Sequence record: PZ357121.2
Source of the DNA: a phage
Reading direction: 5' to 3' (one strand)
Length of the DNA stretch: 64,000 nucleotides
A program made the position numbers and the translations under genes. Shown here in pieces: positions 7,983 to 63,080 of this stretch. The first letter of the stretch is position 1, and each line of letters starts with the position of its first letter. The notes under the pieces were generated by a model. It was not told the DNA's origin. It worked only from the letters and a program-made list of their open reading frames with translations, and searched no databases.

Positions 7983-10196
7983 TTATTTGGCCGCTTCCAC
8001 GGCCTTCATGAATTTAACGATTTGAGCGACCTGTTCTTTAGAAAGAGTACCACGTCGTCCCATGTATTCTGACACAATATGATAATTGGTTTCGAATTCA
8101 ATAACCATTTTATCATCATTATCGTAAGCATTATCTTTAAGCTTATCGAAAATTTTAGCACACAATTCTAACTTCCTGTTCAGGTCTCTGTTTTCAGCAC
8201 CTGCGAATCGATTCCATCCCCAACGATTATTTACTGTTGAGAGTTTTGCAAAATCTTTACTGATTTCTTTGTTTTTAGAGCTAAAATACTTACTAAGGAA
8301 GTTAAGCTCTTCATTACGAGTAATATGATTCAAATAAGGCTGTGCTCTACGACTTGGTGATACATACTCATCATAATCCACTTTATCGATTAGCGTAATA
8401 TAGTCATTAATTGATTTTTCGAACAAGCATTCTACTTCACCAAGTTTACGAACTTTCTTAGCAATCTGTGGACGAACTACAGTGAACTCTTTAATACCTG
8501 ACAAATCAGCAATACGAGTCAAGAAATTGGAGTCATAGTTCAACCAACCTTTATCTGCGTCAAGACATTCAGCGTTAGAACGATTACGAACTATAGCATA
8601 ACCTTGGATTTCATCTGCTTCACTTGCCGGAATAAAGAGGTCTTCTGATACCCAAACATCGTTTTCATTCTTAAAGAATCGATGAGCACTTGGCGATTTA
8701 GGACGAGGCTCATTAGTCCGTTTCCTGACTTCAATCCATGGCTTAACGATTTGTAAAAGCTCTGAAGTCTTGTACATGTTAATGTTGTCGCCATCAAAGA
8801 TAACTTTAAGGCGTTCCAGAAGTTTCATTGCATCTTCGTCTGTAGGGTCAACGAATAGTACGCTTTTACCAAAACCGCGTGGAACTTTACCAGTTAATTT
8901 AACCTCGTCTTTAGACATTTCAATTGAATTAAGAGCTCGCATTAATGGAACGCGTCCCTTAACGTCGTCAATAACGATTTCAACATTTTTAATGTTAATG
9001 CCAATCAGGCTGTTAATTGAAATGGTCGATGATGAGCTACCACTTTCACGAATACGACGAAGACGAGGGGATTCAACGATATCATATACGACGCCAAGAT
9101 TACACCACTCAGGCCCCATTTTAAAACGTTTGTACAACTCAGAATAAGTTAGTTGTTCTTTAGAGTATTTCAGTGATTCAATATTAGACCCGGCCTTTTC
9201 CATGTATTTACGAGCTGTATAGCCAAGAGAATCAATTTCACGGAACACATGACGTGGGTATTTACAATCAATCCATTTCTTAGAATCTTCAGCAAATAAT
9301 TTTGCATCGATTTCTGCAACACGTTTATGGATATTTGCTACTGTACGTTTATCAAATGACAATGCTTCACGAGACGGGGCGACATCTAGTTCACCCATAG
9401 GGAATTTAATATAAGCTGTAGTGCATCGCGTCATCATCCATGTTTGTTCTTTAATAACACTTCCGATTGGATATACAATACCACCGTAAACGGCCATGAT
9501 ATTACCACGTTCACCCCATGGAGCTTCCTTGGCCAAATATACATCGTCAAATTCAGGAAAGTATTTAATATCTTTAACACCACGAACTTCTGCAATATCA
9601 CCTAGAGGACGCATAACATATGCAATTTCAGATGCGAACTTTTCAAAATCTTCTGGGTTAACAGGCACAACTACTTCAACGCCAGTCCGGTCATCAGGAC
9701 CCATCTTATCTACGAAGGTCGGCTTAATCTGTGGACCACTGTCATCTTGATAAATTACATAACCACGAACTTCACCGTTGTGATAAGACGTAAGGTTAAA
9801 CGTATCGGTATATGCTAGTGGAGCTTTAGAGCCTAGTCCGAATCCACCAATGAAATCATTACTCGATGTTTTAGTTGAAGCAAAATATGAGTTATAGATT
9901 CCTGGCTCTTCGTCATTACCTCGAATGGTGAAATCACTCATACCAGGACCAAAGTCTCGAACTACAAAACGTGGGTCTAAACGACCTGGAGCCTGAACAA
10001 TAAACTTATCAGTGCAACCATTAAGAATTTGTCCATCGATACAGTTTGTGATTAATTCACGTACACAAGCCAATTCTTTGTTTGTATAAAGGTCATTAGA
10101 CAAAATCTTATAAACTTTACTATTGCCTTGAATAGTAAATGCTGTGCTCTTACCGCCTGAACCAATAATCGTTTCTTTAGCCGTTTCAATAATCAT
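7983..10196 (-). CDS. rIIA: rIIA protein (737 aa)
   Basis: ATG ORF; histidine-kinase-type ATPase fold motifs near N-terminus; size and context match T4 rIIA. Confidence 0.9.
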   Translation of the reverse strand: MIIETAKETIIGSGGKSTAFTIQGNSKVYKILSNDLYTNKELACVRELITNCIDGQILNGCTDKFIVQAPGRLDPRFVVRDFGPGMSDFTIRGNDEEPGIYNSYFASTKTSSNDFIGGFGLGSKAPLAYTDTFNLTSYHNGEVRGYVIYQDDSGPQIKPTFVDKMGPDDRTGVEVVVPVNPEDFEKFASEIAYVMRPLGDIAEVRGVKDIKYFPEFDDVYLAKEAPWGERGNIMAVYGGIVYPIGSVIKEQTWMMTRCTTAYIKFPMGELDVAPSREALSFDKRTVANIHKRVAEIDAKLFAEDSKKWIDCKYPRHVFREIDSLGYTARKYMEKAGSNIESLKYSKEQLTYSELYKRFKMGPEWCNLGVVYDIVESPRLRRIRESGSSSSTISINSLIGINIKNVEIVIDDVKGRVPLMRALNSIEMSKDEVKLTGKVPRGFGKSVLFVDPTDEDAMKLLERLKVIFDGDNINMYKTSELLQIVKPWIEVRKRTNEPRPKSPSAHRFFKNENDVWVSEDLFIPASEADEIQGYAIVRNRSNAECLDADKGWLNYDSNFLTRIADLSGIKEFTVVRPQIAKKVRKLGEVECLFEKSINDYITLIDKVDYDEYVSPSRRAQPYLNHITRNEELNFLSKYFSSKNKEISKDFAKLSTVNNRWGWNRFAGAENRDLNRKLELCAKIFDKLKDNAYDNDDKMVIEFETNYHIVSEYMGRRGTLSKEQVAQIVKFMKAVEAAK

Positions 10197-15411: not shown

Positions 15412-15831
15412 TTATGCGAAAGCAGCTGGGGTATATTTTTTAATTTGGAATTCAGGAACTACCATGAACTGACCAGCGAAAACGATGTTATAAAGCTTAA
15501 CACCATCTTCTACCCAACGGTCGCTGATAAATCCGGCGATTTGCTTAGTTTTCCACGGTGTTCCATCAGTTGCCGCAGCAATAGTGAATTCATGGTCTTT
15601 TTCAACAGAAACTGATCTGCATAGTCCCCATTTGAACGCTTTTTCTTCTGGTTCAATGAACTGGCTTGAGACGTAGCCAATATTACCATTAGCATCACGA
15701 ACTTTAACTTGGTTACGACCAAAAACCGGATCACTCACAGAAATAACTTCAACCAACTTCCCGGCAACTTTAGAGCGAGAAGCAACAGATACATATACGT
15801 AATCACCTGTAGAGAGATTTACAATATTCAT
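15412..15831 (-). CDS. hypothetical protein (139 aa), paralog of adjacent gene
   Basis: ATG ORF; shares SxASRSK.AGxLVEV, FKWxLC and GFISDxWVEDGxKLYNIVF motifs with 15841-16338. Confidence 0.65.
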   Translation of the reverse strand: MNIVNLSTGDYVYVSVASRSKVAGKLVEVISVSDPVFGRNQVKVRDANGNIGYVSSQFIEPEEKAFKWGLCRSVSVEKDHEFTIAAATDGTPWKTKQIAGFISDRWVEDGVKLYNIVFAGQFMVVPEFQIKKYTPAAFA

Positions 15832-15840
15832 AATAATTCC

Positions 15841-16338
15841 TTAAGCTTTATGAGGAGACACATAGCGAGTGATTTCAGATTCTTTAACAACTCGGAAGTC
15901 ACCTAAGAATACGATATTGTATAACTTTTCACCATCTTCAACCCATTGGTCACTAATGAAGCCACACATAGTATCAGTTTTGCTTGGATAACCGTATTCG
16001 TCGATGTAATCAAATTCTTTATCGGTTATAAATTCAACGCCTTTGCAAAGAGCCCATTTGAACTGTGTAGTAGGCTCAACGATATCGCTTGAAGCAAAGT
16101 GTGCAGGTGCAACTTCTTCGCTTGAAGCAAATTGGACTCGTATATGTTTTTCCAGGAATTTAGGACTTACGTAAGCATACTGGGCATCTTGTCCGCCAAA
16201 ACTGGGCATGATTCGAACTTTAACTTCTTTAATACGTCCCATGCCATTTGTGCGAAGTCCGACAACTTCAACCAGACGACCTGCGGCTTTAGACCGGGAT
16301 GCAGTTGATACACGCTTAATTTCACCAATAGTAATCAT
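15841..16338 (-). CDS. hypothetical protein (165 aa), paralog of adjacent gene
   Basis: ATG ORF; tandem paralog of 15412-15831. Confidence 0.65.
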   Translation of the reverse strand: MITIGEIKRVSTASRSKAAGRLVEVVGLRTNGMGRIKEVKVRIMPSFGGQDAQYAYVSPKFLEKHIRVQFASSEEVAPAHFASSDIVEPTTQFKWALCKGVEFITDKEFDYIDEYGYPSKTDTMCGFISDQWVEDGEKLYNIVFLGDFRVVKESEITRYVSPHKA

Positions 16339-16369: not shown

Positions 16370-16399
16370 ATTATACTCCATCCATCCTTGGATGTAAAC
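16370..16399 (-). promoter_or_regulatory. early promoter (-35 GTTTAC, 18 nt, -10 TATAAT) with CCAAGGATGG spacer motif
   Basis: Minus strand GTTTACATCCAAGGATGGATGGAGTATAAT. Confidence 0.55.
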
Positions 16400-16404
16400 T
16401 GATT

Positions 16405-17082
16405 TTATCGCTGTTTTACACTTAACGGGTCAGGATTCTCAGGGACATCTTCAAGGCCAAGCGCATAACGCTGAGCATATTTTAACATCAAAATATCTTT
16501 AGCACAATCATGAATACTATCATGGGCAACGAATCCTTTTAGCGTACCCATCGGTAATGGACACATACTTAATCCTCGTGTCAACGAGTAAGCTTCGATT
16601 GCCGTACGAATATCGCGTTGAGCCCAGAATTTAACCGGTTCTAATTTATCAGTATCAATCTCTGGTTCAAGAACACCTTCATCACGATAGAGGTCACGAA
16701 TCAAATCGACCAAGATCGGGAAGTCAAAGCTCATACCACGGCACCACATCTGTGATTTCCATTGGTCAACTTTATTAGCTCGGCAATAGTCTAAAAAGAT
16801 TTTAATGCCTTCAAGCGTAGTGACGTCGTCTTCAGACGGAGCCAAGTTTTTACGTGCTTCAGCCGATTGTTCTTTCCACCATTTCATAGTGGATTTAGCG
16901 AAAACTCGCTTCCCTTTCTGAGAAGCTAAATTAAATTTAATTCGCTTACCTCGTTGAACAAGTTCTTCAAATGATTCAACAACTTCAGGGTCGGAATTAT
17001 ATGCAATAACCGCAAGGTCAATAACAGCCGCTTTTGATGTATTGCCGAATGTTTCAAAATCTATAATAACATCAGTGCTCAT
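16405..17082 (-). CDS. dexA: exonuclease A, DEDD 3'-5' exonuclease (225 aa)
   Basis: ATG ORF; N-terminal DFETFG exonuclease motif; adjacent to dda as in T4. Confidence 0.85.
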   Translation of the reverse strand: MSTDVIIDFETFGNTSKAAVIDLAVIAYNSDPEVVESFEELVQRGKRIKFNLASQKGKRVFAKSTMKWWKEQSAEARKNLAPSEDDVTTLEGIKIFLDYCRANKVDQWKSQMWCRGMSFDFPILVDLIRDLYRDEGVLEPEIDTDKLEPVKFWAQRDIRTAIEAYSLTRGLSMCPLPMGTLKGFVAHDSIHDCAKDILMLKYAQRYALGLEDVPENPDPLSVKQR

Positions 17083-52949: not shown

Positions 52950-54225
52950 TGGTGTTTAACCCTATGCATGATTTCTTTATTTTTACCGAGATTAAATCCG
53001 CGTTCGTTCGGATTTCCCAAATAACCACATGTTCTTCTTATTGTGTTCATCTTTTTAGGATCAGTTTCTCCACAAACTGAACAAACAAATCCGTTTTCAG
53101 TAGGAGTCATTTCATGGGTACTTCCGCATGTAAAACATTTATCTACTGGCATATTAACACCAAAATAATCTAAATGTTGTGCAGCATAATCCCATACGGC
53201 CTCAAGACCTTTTAGGTTATTTTTCATATCAGGAAGTTCAACATAAGAAATGTGACCGCCGGTCGCTATGAAATGATATGGCGCTTCACGAGAAATCTTT
53301 TCAAACGGAGTAATATTTTCTTCTACTGAAACGTGGAAACTGTTAGTGTACCAGCCTTTATCGGTAACATCCTTTACACTTCCATATTTTTCTGTATCGA
53401 GTTTACAGAAGCGATAACAAAGGTTTTCAGCAGGAGTCGAATATAAACTAAAAGCAAAACCGGTTCTTTCAGTCCACTGCTTAAGATGAGCATTCATTTT
53501 AGTTAAAATTTCTTGTCCAATATCACGACCGACAAGAATATTCAATTCGTGAATACCAATGTATCCTAAGGACACTGAACTTCTACCGTTTTTAAATAAC
53601 TCAATTATATCGTCATCAGGTTTAAGACGAACCCCGAATGCACCTTCTTGGTAAAGAATAGGAGCAACAGTCGCTTTAACACCCTTTAAAGAACTAATTC
53701 TACACATCAAGGCTTCAAAACACAGATCCATTCGTTCATTAAACAACTCGATAAATTTCTGTTCATTGAACTGTGTTCCAATATAAGAATCTAATGCGAT
53801 GCGAGGAAGATTCAGCGTTACAACACCGAGATTATTACGTCCATCAAGAATTTCATTACCAGTCGAATCTTTCCATACGCTCAAGAAACTACGGCAACCC
53901 ATTGGAGAAACTGGAACTGAAGAACCGGTAATAGCTTTATTATTCTTAACCGAAATAATGTCAGGATACATTCTTTTGCTTGCGCATTCTAACGCAAGTT
54001 GTTTAATATCATAGTTCGGATCATCTTTATAAAGATTAACACCTTCTTCAACAAACATAACAAGTTTAGGAAAAATAGGAGTTATTCCATCACGACCAAG
54101 ACCTTTAATGCGGTTTTTAAGAATTGCCTTCTGAATAATTCGTTCAGTCCAGTCAATTCCCGTACCAAATGTAATTGTCACAAAAGGCGTTTGTCCATTA
54201 GAGCTGAAAAGTGTATTTACTTCAT
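52946..54225 (-). CDS. nrdD: anaerobic ribonucleotide reductase NrdD, exon 2
   Basis: Reading frame continues NrdD (...EVNTLFSSNGQTPF...) to the glycyl-radical C-terminus; 3' splice site placed after intron-terminal G so that exon1 T + AT GAA GTA gives ...QAYEYEVNTLF; spliced product 605 aa as T4 NrdD. Confidence 0.8.
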
Positions 54226-57851: not shown

Positions 57852-58208
57852 TTAACCCCGGAGTTTATTGAGCTCTTCATAATCAATCCAGGATTCTAGC
57901 CCTGACGGCAGGTCACATTCAATGTTCCACAGAAGCTCTTCAATGGCTTGCAGGCGATTATATTCTTCAACGGTAATGGTAACCATTGGTGTAACCGGTT
58001 CTGCCTTTTTAACCATCATGTCGTTCATCAGGACGTAAAGGTCATCACGAACGACAGTGTCGTTCCAACCCCATGATTTGGCTTCGTAAGCTAATGATGA
58101 AGGGAGCACATTTAAAACTTCAATAATAGTTGGAGCATCAGGACCAAGTTCATTGGCACAAACTTCGTATACATCTTGGAAATCTTTAAGATTTAATGAA
58201 TATGTCAT
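57852..58208 (-). CDS. hypothetical protein (118 aa)
   Basis: ATG ORF; shares an identical 23-nt translation-initiation region with the next gene. Confidence 0.55.
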   Translation of the reverse strand: MTYSLNLKDFQDVYEVCANELGPDAPTIIEVLNVLPSSLAYEAKSWGWNDTVVRDDLYVLMNDMMVKKAEPVTPMVTITVEEYNRLQAIEELLWNIECDLPSGLESWIDYEELNKLRG

Positions 58209-59189: not shown

Positions 59190-59494
59190 TATAATGTTCT
59201 CTCAAATTTGTGGAAGCATTTACGGCATTTCAATTTCAAGTTATCAGTGGTCCAGTTAACCAGTTGGACTTGGATAGTTCCACATTCCGGACATGGATGT
59301 TTTGCTGCCGATTTGGCAGCATTTTCACGTCGTTCAACCATTTTCATGATTTCGTTCCATGCCGGAGGAACGAACTCTTCTTCACTGTGGATTTTATCTC
59401 GCTGAACAAATTCAATCTTTGAACTATCGTCAATAAACTTAACCAAGCCGTGATTAGTGCTCATATCAATATCCTCTAAAAGACGTAGTTTCAT
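59189..59494 (-). CDS. zinc-ribbon protein (101 aa)
   Basis: ATG ORF; C-terminal CPECG...CRKC. Confidence 0.6.
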   Translation of the reverse strand: MKLRLLEDIDMSTNHGLVKFIDDSSKIEFVQRDKIHSEEEFVPPAWNEIMKMVERRENAAKSAAKHPCPECGTIQVQLVNWTTDNLKLKCRKCFHKFERTL

Positions 59495-60444
59495 TATAAA
59501 ACCTCAATGGCATTTCGTAAACCGTCCGCTTTCGCATTCAGAGCTTTTAACGATTTAGTTTGTTCTGCAATCTGGGCTTCGACTTCTTTCAGACGAGATT
59601 TGAGATATTCGCGTTCTTCTCTTAAGTTATCAACTTTTTCTGCTTTAGGCTCTTTAATAGGCTTAGGCTTATACTCGTTAGGGTTCTTCAGCTTAATTTG
59701 AATACGAGAACTGAATAACATTGAACCGTTATCTTCGGTTTCATCATACATTTCTACCACGTCCATGATTCTTAACATCATGCGAAGTTTATAAGACAGC
59801 GAACGAATGGTTTTGTTGCGCTTATTAATTTCTTCGGCTTTCATGGTACCGAGATTACGTGAGTAGTAATAAGGAACCTGGATATCAATTGTCAATGATG
59901 CGTTACCATTACCGGTTGGTTTGAATACTGCAGTAACCCAATCTTTAACATGAACTTTATTTGTACGACCATCGCCGCCTGTGAATAATTTACGTGAATG
60001 TTTAAAAAGCATATTCACTTGGTTATTGAATTCACAAGCAAATTTATCGGCAAATTTAGTTTCAGGAATGGTAGATAACCAATCAGCCAAATGAGTCTTT
60101 TTAACATCGTTAATAATAGTAAATTCAACTAAATCAGTTTTAGGTGTCACAGATTTAATAAAGCTCGGCTTCATAAAGTTTTTAATGTTATCACGAGCTA
60201 CAGTAGAAGATAATAAACGAGAACGTTTGAACCATTGAAGCAGTGTCCCTAATGAATGAGAATACGCATTCTGAGTATCTTTACAGATATGATTTTCTTG
60301 GCCTGTGTATGTACCAAAATCGCGAAGAATACCACTTACTACAACTCGGTGTGGAACATCAAATCCTAATGAACCAGAAGCACGTTGGGCATGAACGTTA
60401 GCGATAAGACCTGCAAAATAATCAATGTAATGTGAACGTGTCAT
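59494..60444 (-). CDS. hypothetical protein with C-terminal coiled coil (316 aa)
   Basis: ATG ORF; heptad-rich charged C-terminus; own upstream promoter. Confidence 0.65.
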   Translation of the reverse strand: MTRSHYIDYFAGLIANVHAQRASGSLGFDVPHRVVVSGILRDFGTYTGQENHICKDTQNAYSHSLGTLLQWFKRSRLLSSTVARDNIKNFMKPSFIKSVTPKTDLVEFTIINDVKKTHLADWLSTIPETKFADKFACEFNNQVNMLFKHSRKLFTGGDGRTNKVHVKDWVTAVFKPTGNGNASLTIDIQVPYYYSRNLGTMKAEEINKRNKTIRSLSYKLRMMLRIMDVVEMYDETEDNGSMLFSSRIQIKLKNPNEYKPKPIKEPKAEKVDNLREEREYLKSRLKEVEAQIAEQTKSLKALNAKADGLRNAIEVL

Positions 60445-60472: not shown

Positions 60473-60502
60473 ATTATACTCCAACCGTCCTTGGTTGTAA
60501 AC
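60473..60502 (-). promoter_or_regulatory. early promoter (-35 GTTTAC, 18 nt, -10 TATAAT) with CCAAGGACGG spacer motif
   Basis: Minus strand GTTTACAACCAAGGACGGTTGGAGTATAAT. Confidence 0.55.
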
Positions 60503-60506
60503 TGAT

Positions 60507-61439
60507 TTATGATTTTAATGCATTCATTGCGTTAAAAAGTTTAGAGTACTGCAACTGGAGCTTGGTAACTACTTGTTGAGCATCACGAAGCTTAGCTTGT
60601 GCTTTGTCAAGTTCAACAGACAGTTGGTCCACAGTGGCTTTGATTTGATTATAATAGTAATCTTCTGCAGGAAGAAGACCGTTAGAGATTTCCAGTTTAG
60701 ACGACGGTGTGCCGTTAAACATAACAGGTTGTGCTGAAGCTGAATTAATCTTACCGATAGTCGGGGCGACAATAATTGACGCTTCGAACGTTGCATTTTC
60801 CTTTTTAAGATTTTTATAATATTCAGAGTCTTTGTGCCACCATGGCGCAGGAACCTTTTTACCAATAGATACACGAGCCTGGATAGCGATATGGCCCTTA
60901 TTCTTGATAACGTCGATAATATTAAGCTCACGAGAATAAATTGCTTTAATCTGGTGAATATTATCACCTAACACTTCCAACGCTTGGTGGAATACACGAG
61001 CAACGTTATCATTCTTAGGTTTATACGTAAGAGTGAACTCGTTCTCACTGATAACCATGATTTCCAACTTATCGTAAGTATATTTCAAATGTTTCATGTT
61101 AATTGCTTGAGGACGAATACGAGAAGCAATGGCCATCAGATTGTTAAGGTTATTCCGGAACTGCTTAGCGAAATATTGTCCTTCACCACCAATACAAAAA
61201 TTACGAAGTTTCTGTTTGGCTAATAAACGGCTGAACTCACCATTTTTAATGAACTCTTTAACGGGGGTGTTAGTAACGCATTCAAATTGAGTAAACTTAC
61301 GAGAAGTAATTCCATAATACGAACAGATTTCCTCAATCTCTTCAGGAGTCTTTACAGGCATACGGATAGGATTAGGACCTGGGGTATATGCGTTCGAGGT
61401 AAATTCTTTGATAAGTTCTCTACGTGTAATAAAAGCCAT
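60507..61439 (-). CDS. hypothetical protein with C-terminal coiled coil (310 aa)
   Basis: ATG ORF; C-terminal heptad region. Confidence 0.65.
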   Translation of the reverse strand: MAFITRRELIKEFTSNAYTPGPNPIRMPVKTPEEIEEICSYYGITSRKFTQFECVTNTPVKEFIKNGEFSRLLAKQKLRNFCIGGEGQYFAKQFRNNLNNLMAIASRIRPQAINMKHLKYTYDKLEIMVISENEFTLTYKPKNDNVARVFHQALEVLGDNIHQIKAIYSRELNIIDVIKNKGHIAIQARVSIGKKVPAPWWHKDSEYYKNLKKENATFEASIIVAPTIGKINSASAQPVMFNGTPSSKLEISNGLLPAEDYYYNQIKATVDQLSVELDKAQAKLRDAQQVVTKLQLQYSKLFNAMNALKS

Positions 61440-61465: not shown

Positions 61466-61494
61466 ATTATACTCCAACCATCCTTGGTTGTACA
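61466..61494 (-). promoter_or_regulatory. early promoter (-35 TGTACA, 17 nt, -10 TATAAT) with CCAAGGATGG spacer motif
   Basis: Minus strand TGTACAACCAAGGATGGTTGGAGTATAAT. Confidence 0.55.
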
Positions 61495-62490
61495 TCATTC
61501 CTTAAGAAGTTTTACTACCTGAATAAGATTAGCTCGTTCTGTTTTATTTTTACCGTTTAAGCCTGCTAATCGTGAGATTTCATCGTCAGTCTGTTGAATA
61601 GTTACATTAAGTTCGTTAATCAAAGCTTCAAAGTATTTGATTTGCTCAGCATGTTTTGATTCAAATTTCTGAACTGGAATAACGTCTTGGTTTAGTTCAT
61701 CAATAAGGTCTTTAAGAGCATCTTCTTGGTTGATATCATATTCAACTTCTTTTATTTCTTCAATGAGCTCGTCTTTATATCTAACGTCTTTTAGTCCTGG
61801 TGCTGGTCCTGAAATCTCTTCTTTAGGAGTACAAACATATCCAATACGGTATCCAATGCCGTCTCGCTTGATATCAACTTCGTCAATAAATCCACAATGT
61901 TTAAGACCAGAGCCGATTAGGTCAAAATATCCTTGACGTCGTCCTTCAAACGTTACACGAACTACTAAGACAGTTTTACCTGCAACCTTTTGAAGCTCAC
62001 ATTTATAAAAGTCTGTTGAACCTGAATAACGTGGATGAGTTTTAAAGTTCATCTGACGATCTAGGCCCATTTGTAAGCGTGCTGATACGGCCATAAAACG
62101 TGTTTGGTTCTCGTTAAGATGAGCAACAATCCATTTCAAAGGCATTTTACACTGTTCACGACCGAACAAATCAGTATATCCTAGATTACGCAGAATGTTG
62201 TTAGAGTTAATCATCGACAGAACGTTAAGTTTATTCAGCGCGCTGAAGATTCCATCGGCCATTGATTTTCCGTAACCTTTACACGCTTTAATAAGCGCTC
62301 GCGGTAGATTAGTATAGATTTCAGACGGCATATGAAAATCAAATTTACTAGTCAGTAATTGATGAACTTGGATAGCAATTTGCTCATAATTAAGCGCTCT
62401 GCGATCATTATGGTCTTTAAACCACACTTTAATCTGTGAAGCACATAAACCGTTAATTTCATGTTTTACCGCATCAGATGTAATGCTCAT
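61495..62490 (-). CDS. hypothetical protein with C-terminal coiled coil (331 aa)
   Basis: ATG ORF; C-terminal heptad region. Confidence 0.65.
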   Translation of the reverse strand: MSITSDAVKHEINGLCASQIKVWFKDHNDRRALNYEQIAIQVHQLLTSKFDFHMPSEIYTNLPRALIKACKGYGKSMADGIFSALNKLNVLSMINSNNILRNLGYTDLFGREQCKMPLKWIVAHLNENQTRFMAVSARLQMGLDRQMNFKTHPRYSGSTDFYKCELQKVAGKTVLVVRVTFEGRRQGYFDLIGSGLKHCGFIDEVDIKRDGIGYRIGYVCTPKEEISGPAPGLKDVRYKDELIEEIKEVEYDINQEDALKDLIDELNQDVIPVQKFESKHAEQIKYFEALINELNVTIQQTDDEISRLAGLNGKNKTERANLIQVVKLLKE

Positions 62491-62552
62491 AACTATTTCC
62501 TCAGATTGAATTGGAACTCAAAACCATTATAACCCGTCCTTGGGTAAAGCGT

Positions 62553-63080
62553 TTATGCGTGAACCGTCTTTAAACGTTCTTCAAATTTCCGAAGAGTACT
62601 AATACGTTCTGCTTTCTGTTTTGTATAGTTTGCAATACGTTCTGAAGTGAGAGCGTATCGTTCGTTTACTGTTTCTTTCATGAAGTCAGGGATTTCACGA
62701 GAAGCTTTAATTTCATCAAACTTATCGAGTACTGCCTGGTCTTCAGCGATTAAATTTTCGTACATCTCGATATCTTTCTTGATAAACTCGATATCTTCCT
62801 GGGTTACTTTGGATAAACGAGATGCTTTATCCTTTTTGTACTGCTCGTTAGTTTCACGAGACCAGAATAATGTACGTTTTTTGTTAGTGTTTTTGTAGAC
62901 TTCCACAATTCCAACTGAATCGATGATAGCAATCCAATTCCAGCGAGATTTGAAAATCTGACCTCCGTCCACGGTAATCTCGTTACCATAAGCAACGTCA
63001 TTAAAGAACTTGCTTTGTGCTTCAGATTTAAATTTACCGTCGTTATAATTTACCAGGTTGAAAATATCTTTAGCGTTCAT
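62553..63080 (-). CDS. hypothetical protein (175 aa)
   Basis: ATG ORF; leader identical to that of 26926-27243. Confidence 0.6.
   Translation of the reverse strand: MNAKDIFNLVNYNDGKFKSEAQSKFFNDVAYGNEITVDGGQIFKSRWNWIAIIDSVGIVEVYKNTNKKRTLFWSRETNEQYKKDKASRLSKVTQEDIEFIKKDIEMYENLIAEDQAVLDKFDEIKASREIPDFMKETVNERYALTSERIANYTKQKAERISTLRKFEERLKTVHA

Follow-up and report, generated by a model that had tools for sequence, protein, structure and literature searches.

A putative PeSL-type cassette of T4-type phages with an AAGGA-loop hairpin nested in the spacer of its early promoter

Introduction

The closest described counterparts of the elements analyzed here are the PeSLs, small cassettes that combine an early promoter with a stem-loop and mediate modular shuffling (Arbiol et al. 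2010, PMC2839356; Comeau et al. 2014, PMC4122927). PeSLs have been reported from RB49/phi1 and T4/PST, including around 43-51 kb, and in the published examples the stem-loop is located upstream of the promoter and the conserved part is the stem, which takes the form G_n...C_n in RB49 and AGNA...TCNT in PST/T4 (PMC2839356, PMC4122927). A second point of reference is provided by the RNA targets of the host regulator CsrA, for which SELEX established the consensus RUACARGGAUGU; the ACA of this consensus was 100% conserved and the GU nearly so, and the GGA was displayed in the loop of a hairpin of no more than 4 pairs in 51 of 55 ligands (PMC7652899).

Here we analyze a 64,000-nucleotide stretch of phage DNA (PZ357121.2), referred to throughout as the window, for which a first-pass annotation had noted a CCAAGGA(C/T)GG core in the spacers of four promoters, proposed a dedicated regulator or a co-regulated gene set as its explanation, and suggested a motif search of relatives. 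The region around the motif is ~98% identical to Escherichia phage vB_EcoM_JQD51 and is also matched by hundreds of T4-type phages, and by this similarity and its gene order the window is assigned to an RB69-like T4-type phage. In the window and its relatives, the core recurs as the fixed loop of a short hairpin whose stem varies, located between genes of the early-gene strand.

Motif copies and their genomic setting

The window displays two segments with RB69-like gene order, the first running nrdC, nrdC.7, nrdC.2, nrdC.3, nrdC.5, nrdC.6, nrdC.8, and the second comprising dda and dexA followed by a cluster of MotB-family genes. The MotB-family cluster of RB69 is larger than the pair in the window. 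Product names in the JQD51 record (PV204681.1) appear to be shifted by approximately one gene relative to the T4 order, as exemplified by the gene in the gp45 position being labelled 'RNA polymerase binding protein', and these labels were not relied on. The minus strand carries every gene near the four motif sites, and the motif is therefore read on the minus strand (Table 1).

Exactly four copies of CCAAGGAYGG are present in the window (16382-16391, 60485-60494, 61478-61487 and 62534-62543), all on the minus strand, which is the gene strand at each site, and all just upstream of TATAAT. By our own arithmetic for 2 x 64 kb, ~0.24 exact copies would be expected by chance, and the annotated motif is real and non-random; with one mismatch, six copies were found against 2.64 expected. 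The full pattern AAGGAYGGNNGGAGTATAAT occurs exactly at 16370, 60473 and 61466, and the context common to these three full copies is TACA(A/T)CC AAGGAY GG(T/A)TG GAG TATAAT. The copy at 62521-62545 is shorter, in agreement with its original description as truncated, and is directly abutted by its TATAAT.

Three of the four copies take up the 17-bp spacer of strong sigma-70/T4-early-type promoters (TTTACA/TGTACA...TATAAT). Those at 60501-60473 and 61494-61466 match sigma-70 sites at 11/12 and 10/12 positions, respectively, and are the top sigma-70-like matches on the gene strand of that region, while the site at 16398-16370 reads TTTACA-17-TATAAT. The fourth copy (62545) has the arrangement CTTTAC-12-TATAAT and was not called in the promoter scan; with its nearest -35-like hexamer only 12 bp away, cassette C is probably a weak promoter or none. 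Placement of the motif within the spacers of four promoters thus holds for three copies and fails for the copy at 62545. The intergenic gaps that hold the cassettes measure ~55-65 nt, and each hairpin described below starts 4-10 nt past the stop of the gene upstream. For hairpin A, which follows the 310-aa gene, the distance from the stop codon is 10 nt, and the -35 hexamer of cassette B abuts the upstream stop codon at 61495-61497.

The genes downstream of the cassettes have no assigned function and are unrelated to each other, representing three different PHROG families and the MotB family. Three of the copies had been described as preceding three coiled-coil genes, but those genes are not detectable as paralogs. 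Co-duplication of the motif with paralogous genes was considered and rejected on the same grounds, as the 310-331 aa gene products fall into three PHROG families and gave BLASTP E values of only 0.7 and 4.4. The only paralogs among the downstream genes are the tandem pair at 15412-16338, which encodes two MotB-family proteins (PF17613) with 41% identity (E 5e-30). Since the downstream genes share one promoter type, their early co-expression is plausible, as inferred from the promoter sequences.

Table 1. Cassettes, hairpins and neighboring genes in the window
Feature	Position	Strand	Details
Cassette A, predicted promoter of nrdC.3-like gene	60473..60501	-	-35 TTTACA 60496-60501, 17-bp spacer, -10 TATAAT 60473-60478
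Hairpin A, CAACC.AAGGAC.GGTTG	60482..60497	-	loop 60487-60492; RNA fold -4.6 kcal/mol; covariance model 30.0 bits
Cassette B, predicted promoter of nrdC.5-like gene	61466..61494	-	-35 TGTACA 61489-61494, 17-bp spacer, -10 61466-61471
Hairpin B, CAACC.AAGGAT.GGTTG	61475..61490	-	covariance model 28.7 bits
Cassette C, shortened	62526..62545	-	hairpin ACCC.AAGGAC.GGGT 62532-62545, then TATAAT 62526-62531; covariance model 24.7 bits
Cassette D, predicted promoter of first MotB-family gene	16370..16398	-	-35 TTTACA 16393-16398, 17-bp spacer, -10 16370-16375
Hairpin D, CATCC.AAGGAT.GGATG	16379-16394	-	covariance model 30.8 bits
nrdC.3-like gene, downstream of cassette A	59494..60444	-	316 aa; homolog of RB69 nrdC.3; phrog_1435, no assigned function
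nrdC.5-like gene, downstream of cassette B	60507..61439	-	310 aa; homolog of RB69 nrdC.5; DUF7235 (PF23882, E 1e-111)
nrdC.6-like gene, downstream of cassette C	61495..62490	-	331 aa; homolog of RB69 nrdC.6; phrog_2257
nrdC.8-like gene, upstream of cassette C	62553..63080	-	175 aa; stop codon 7 nt before hairpin C
First MotB-family gene, downstream of cassette D	15841..16338	-	165 aa; first of tandem paralog pair
Second MotB-family gene of tandem pair	15412-15831	-	
dexA exonuclease gene, upstream of cassette D	16405..17082	-	stop codon 10 nt before hairpin D

Covarying stems around a fixed loop

The window contains 59 AAGGAY hexamers, only four of which are flanked by at least three complementary pairs, and these four are the motif copies, each with 4-5 pairs. 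The stems within the window differ from each other by compensatory changes (CAACC/GGTTG, CATCC/GGATG and ACCC/GGGT), and further stems enclose the unchanged loop in T4, namely AGCC/GGCT before nrdC.3, CCAC/GTGG before nrdC.4, TACCAC/GTGGTA before rIIA.1 and TTATACC/GGTATAA before nrdC.7. The suggested search of relatives was productive, as the same hairpin class precedes unrelated genes in T4 (rIIA.1, nrdC.3, nrdC.4 and nrdC.7), RB69, JQD51 and JS98. Genome-wide counts are four hairpins in T4 and seven in JQD51, all on the early-gene strand and all abutting a -10, with at least five in the first 62 kb of RB69 and two in the 24 kb of JS98 that were examined. A search for related loci started from a single protein yielded two loci only.

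Among 14 distinct variants, a set gathered by looking for stems, 95.7% of cells are paired and double changes are found in four of the five pairs. Double-change cells number 22 compared to 8.4 in shuffles, none of 500 shuffles reaches the observed covariation, and controls in which the register was slid are 24-51% paired. A less biased check is provided by a survey of stem lengths around AAGGAN positioned 2-12 nt upstream of a -10-like hexamer in T4, JQD51, RB69 and JS98, where the distribution is bimodal, with 59 sites showing no pair, 12 showing one, six showing two, a single site showing three and 15 showing at least four. With a covariance model, 22 sites scored 21.6-31.3 bits in the sequence searched and the next match reached 15.7 bits; within the window the model returned the same four sites only (24.7-30.8 bits), and it found no more diverged copies. 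No Rfam family matched at gathering score anywhere in the window.

The predicted folding energies of the RNA are weak (-4.4 to -7.4 kcal/mol). Intrinsic terminators, which have a G+C-rich stem of at least 5 pairs and then a U run, were considered as an identity for the hairpins and rejected, given the weak stems, the lack of a T/U run and the absence of the four sites from the terminator-like matches of a simple scan. A general excess of GGA in the hairpin loops of T4 was likewise not seen, with 71 of 1394 loops on one strand and 50 of 1394 on the other.

The loop consists of AAGGA followed by one free base, and five of its six positions are invariant across the 14 distinct stems. The sixth base flips between T and C at orthologous sites of close relatives, for example at nrdC.3 in the window versus RB69, and is A in one JQD51 copy; a rare loop variant in JQD51 reads AAGGATT. 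Since the stem is kept by compensatory changes and AAGGA is kept as sequence, something appears to read the loop. Variant hairpins followed by a TACTAT-type -10 are also present at T4 167061 (TACCAC.AAGGACC.GTGGTA, before ndd.6), T4 137497 (CCACA.UGGAG.UGUGG, before rnlA) and JQD51 109091 (AACACC.AAGGAA.GGUGUU).

As a separate observation, many early promoters of T4 overlap inverted repeats that usually flank the -10. Examples on the minus strand of T4 (NC_000866) are located at 57990, 20612, 65799, 129918, 133331 and 7215, with arms in the spacer and just past the -10, an arrangement in which the -10 would sit in the loop and which would represent a second way to overlap a hairpin with a promoter.

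RNA hairpin or DNA operator

Three features, the covariation, the G·U wobbles on the sense strand and a displacement of 4-5 bp against the -10, favor an RNA hairpin within read-through transcripts over a DNA operator. Wobbles that pair only on the sense strand were identified in two related contigs, L094 and L112 (CUUCC/GGAGG and UUGUAUC/GAUAUAA), and no A·C positions, which would correspond to wobbles on the other strand, were found within the stems of T4-type copies. With respect to spacing, the loop occupies -26 to -21 in the window copies with a 17-bp spacer, -22 to -17 in the 62534 copy and in the T4 nrdC.4 and rIIA.1 copies, and -27 to -22 in the T4 nrdC.3 copy, such that the shift between copies amounts to about half a helical turn.

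These measurements bear directly on the view taken in the first-pass annotation, in which a dedicated phage or host regulator binds the spacer as duplex DNA and switches the promoters together. That view draws on a 10-bp core conserved inside three promoters and found at several promoters per genome in three genera, and on the fact that the shut-off of T4 early promoters is still unexplained (PMC2988021). However, the arms covary to preserve pairing and offer no constant half-site sequence, and compensatory arm changes are a signature of base pairing, not of protein half-sites. The G·U wobbles are strand-specific, the core moves by 4-5 bp relative to the -10 where a regulator acting with RNA polymerase would be expected to keep a fixed phase, one copy retains the hairpin without a usable -35, and a cruciform with a 5-bp stem would not be expected to extrude. 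We therefore consider a spacer operator very unlikely. The part of the original proposal that survives is a gene set with a shared promoter type; a DNA-binding regulator that reads the spacer is at odds with covarying arms and a core that shifts against the -10. Judged from the sequences, the similarity among the motif copies is better explained by a portable, recombining promoter/stem-loop cassette than by a dedicated regulator.

Recombination between cassettes

The gene order downstream of dexA provides an opportunity to view the cassettes in a comparative context. In RB69 and JQD51, dexA is followed by a first cassette with a CAACC stem, a small gene, a second cassette with a CATCC stem and a MotB-family gene. 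Cassette D of the window is a chimera of the two, in which the dexA flank and the -35 side of the first cassette are fused to the stem, the -10 and the downstream sequence of the second; the junction (16397/16396) falls inside the cassette, and the flanks are identical at 122/124 and 49/50 positions. The window is without exactly the 557-bp cassette-to-cassette unit that is present in JQD51 (146962-147519) and RB69 (8363-8923) and that consists of one cassette and the small gene beginning MNIN..., and arrangements with and without this unit both segregate among close relatives. These alignments show the cassettes in the role of crossover points at the dexA/motB junction of the window and offer direct evidence, as read from the aligned sequences, that the dexA/motB cassettes mediated gene loss or gain there.

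Similarity between cassettes is not confined to neighbors, as ~45 nt of the first post-dexA cassette in RB69 and JQD51 recur without change in the cassette that precedes nrdC.3, ~40 kb away. The gene following the nrdC.8 cassette also differs, being nrdC.7 in T4 and nrdC.6 in RB69, JS98 and the window, and the similarity of this cassette stops ~10 nt past the -10. Cassette C is homologous to the TTATACC.AAGGAT.GGTATAA element located downstream of nrdC.8 in T4 and JS98. In T4, the element lies within a 51-nt intergenic stretch (53320-53370) for which 474 of 588 phage records show an identity of at least 99%, an unusually strong degree of conservation for non-coding DNA in a variable region.

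Identity of this kind could indicate that the likeness of the spacers is a leftover of cassettes having recently duplicated and exchanged sequence by gene conversion, with no function beyond that of the promoter. Recombination between cassettes is evident, distant cassettes share long identical stretches, and the near-identity of the 51-nt stretch downstream of nrdC.8 is consistent with such an origin. The relic reading nevertheless has to contend with a loop that is fixed while the stems change in a compensatory manner across T4, RB69 and JS98, and with flanks past the -10 that are completely diverged. Because the stems and the sequence past the -10 have diverged around a fixed loop, drift or gene conversion alone is insufficient, and we regard a functionless relic as quite improbable.

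Related hairpins beyond T4-type phages

Viral contigs were also scanned with a loose pattern, which yielded mostly chance matches and brought up two uncultivated phages with a hairpin inside a consensus promoter. The first, L027 (IMGVR_UViG_3300021514_000002, 363 kb), carries TTGACA-G-TAGCCC.AAGGAT.GGGCTA-TAAT, and the second, L071 (IMGVR_UViG_3300013126_000015, 102 kb), carries TTGACA-A-ATCGCC.AAGGAT.GGCGAT-ATAAT; sister promoters in these loci have GGGA or CGGA at the centre of the loop. Both loci harbor dense arrays of TTGACA-N16-18-TATAAT promoters before small genes, with several spacer hairpins displaying A(A/G/C)GGAU loops. Neither locus had a megablast match among GenBank phages. In a scrambled-loop control, stems of at least 5 bp flanked 16 of 110 AAGGA loops and 1 of 92 scrambled loops, indicating that long stems are enriched specifically around AAGGA, and as most of this excess derives from T4-type contigs, the evidence outside T4-type phages consists of a few loci.

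Candidate readers of the loop

The form of the hairpin raises the prospect that the loop is a binding site for CsrA, a reading we treat as a lead, not a finding, and consider rather unlikely. A CsrA dimer would bridge the hairpin of a read-through transcript to the GGA of the downstream Shine-Dalgarno sequence and would thereby affect the following cistron at the level of translation, stability or Rho termination, while transcripts begun at the embedded promoter would lack this hairpin and escape. CsrA prefers an ANGGAN loop that sits on a short stem and is closed by C-G, and in every copy the GGA is unpaired within a hairpin of 4-7 bp and the variable sixth loop base is compatible with ANGGAN. 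At the level of the SELEX consensus, the T4 nrdC.4 and rIIA.1 copies read exactly ACAAGGAUGU, but the full ACA...GU is found only in these two and in the 167061 variant, whereas all four window copies are CCAAGGAYGG and their CCA...GG departs from the consensus at SELEX-invariant positions.

A second GGA is present in the Shine-Dalgarno sequence ~36 nt downstream in three of the four window copies, but GGA-rich Shine-Dalgarno sequences are the norm in T4 and the second GGA is therefore uninformative. The likeness of the loop to CsrA sites could be no more than a resemblance to a Shine-Dalgarno sequence. Hairpins of the form C[A(A/G/C)GGAU]G also occupy consensus sigma-70 spacers of the uncultivated phages L027 and L071, in keeping with the CsrA-preferred form. 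The host sRNA CsrB, which sequesters CsrA, is reportedly stabilised during T4 infection (PMC9697503), a point that may matter if the hairpin loops bind CsrA. Our literature search found no report linking CsrA to T4 mRNAs. A literature search for the motif strings likewise returned nothing relevant.

We judge as unlikely the broader proposition that the hairpin displays an ANGGAN loop so that a GGA-reading factor of the host, with CsrA as the most plausible one, is recruited to the polycistronic early RNA of the phage. If true, the site, being hidden in the promoter spacer, would be present in read-through RNA but not in promoter-initiated RNA, and the two RNA populations of a gene could then differ in translation, decay or Rho termination. 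Its recurrence as C[A-N-GGA-U]G inside TTGACA-N17-TATAAT in two uncultivated phages unrelated to each other would then suggest a general phage strategy instead of a quirk of T4-type phages.

The loop could alternatively serve as a processing site at which the phage endoribonuclease RegB, acting with ribosomal protein S1, separates cistrons by cutting at the unpaired loop GGA or at a GGAG just 3' of the stem. [quoted passage not shown] The sequence GGAGUAUAAU is a partial fit to the consensus GGAGRAYARAA, and the regB gene is present in RB69 and JS98. Published in vivo tests nevertheless disfavour this assignment, as all 30 T4 intergenic GGAU sites were tested and cleavage was found only at those of 55.2 and motB.2, with GGAC being the poorest substrate and structured sites resisting cleavage (PMC1702504). 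Several copies are also without a GGAG after the stem, and in place of the A-rich 7-mer of a RegB/S1 site, the GGA(U/C) of the loop has the G-rich 3' arm after it and the post-stem GGAG has UAUAAU, the latter a partial fit. A RegB site accordingly ranks as extremely unlikely. It is also possible that the loop is read by the anti-Shine-Dalgarno sequence of the ribosome or by S1.

Discussion

The motif copies probably represent, in a reading we hold with some but by no means full confidence, PeSL-type cassettes with a nested hairpin, in which a T4-type early promoter and its spacer hairpin form a portable recombination point between non-essential early genes. The motif comprises the invariant loop together with the C-G pairs that close a hairpin of 14-16 nt, and this hairpin is nested in the sole part of a T4-type early promoter that is free of sequence requirements, the 17-18 bp spacer. 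Such a spacer may be the one promoter stretch where an RNA element of 14-16 nt fits without harm to the promoter. Promoter and hairpin would together constitute a compact portable cassette of ~35-50 bp that fills the spaces of ~60 nt by which non-essential early genes are separated in variable regions of T4-type phages. Through their repeated homology, the cassettes would become crossover points at which the genes between them are deleted, inserted or swapped.

Under this cassette model the same bases would serve two roles. As DNA, the cassette is predicted from its consensus match to act as a host sigma-70 early promoter for the downstream gene. As RNA, the spacer would fold into a hairpin 4-10 nt past the upstream stop codon in read-through transcripts. 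The covariation demonstrates that the spacer folds as RNA; its folding in vivo, the read-through and the activity of the promoter are what we infer. The hairpin may mark or insulate the boundary between cistrons, potentially as a 3'-end barrier, a weak attenuator or a binding site for a protein or the ribosome.

Several implications follow from the nested cassette. Promoter spacers may carry a second message, with 17 'free' bases encoding an RNA hairpin in a genome with 60-nt gene gaps, and since a spacer can encode an RNA hairpin, conservation of a spacer need not mean a DNA-binding regulator. The 557-bp unit that is present or absent among sister phages shows cleanly how a gene can be lost or gained by way of cassettes. 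PeSLs would be extended, in nested form, to RB69- and JS98-type phages, and the identity of the reader of the loop bears on how T4-type phages handle the read-through of early transcripts into downstream genes.

With the CsrA/RsmA hairpins of the CsrB repeats and the glgC leader the present elements share an A-N-G-G-A-N loop, C-G closure and a short stem, but most copies have CCA...GG in place of ACA...GU and all are set in phage intergenic regions overlapping a promoter. With RegB/S1 sites they share an intergenic GGA(G/U) in early transcripts, but the A-rich 3' consensus is missing. As T4 early promoters, they present a GTTTAC-type -35, a 17-18 bp spacer, TATAAT and A-rich upstream sequence, and the hairpin copies of T4 itself also have a TGG extended -10. 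The window copies differ in having GAG before TATAAT and thus no TGn extended -10, one of them has 12-bp spacing, and the described consensus of these promoters includes no spacer element.

The most extensive correspondence is with the PeSLs, from which the present cassettes are nonetheless distinguished in three respects. Here the stem-loop is positioned inside the promoter spacer and not upstream of the -35; the stems are 4-5 bp in length without a U tract, making the terminator role of RB49 PeSLs doubtful in this setting; and it is the AAGGA+N loop that is invariant while the stems vary, a feature not described for PeSLs. In common with PeSLs, a sigma-70/T4-early promoter and a short stem-loop are combined in one small intergenic unit, and the units are repeated with sequence similarity and clustered in hyperplastic regions beside non-essential genes, here dexA-motB and nrdC.3-nrdC.8. 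They likewise sit at the boundaries of insertions, deletions and replacements that set close relatives apart, and the loss of 557 bp between two cassettes in the window fits the mini-circle excision model.
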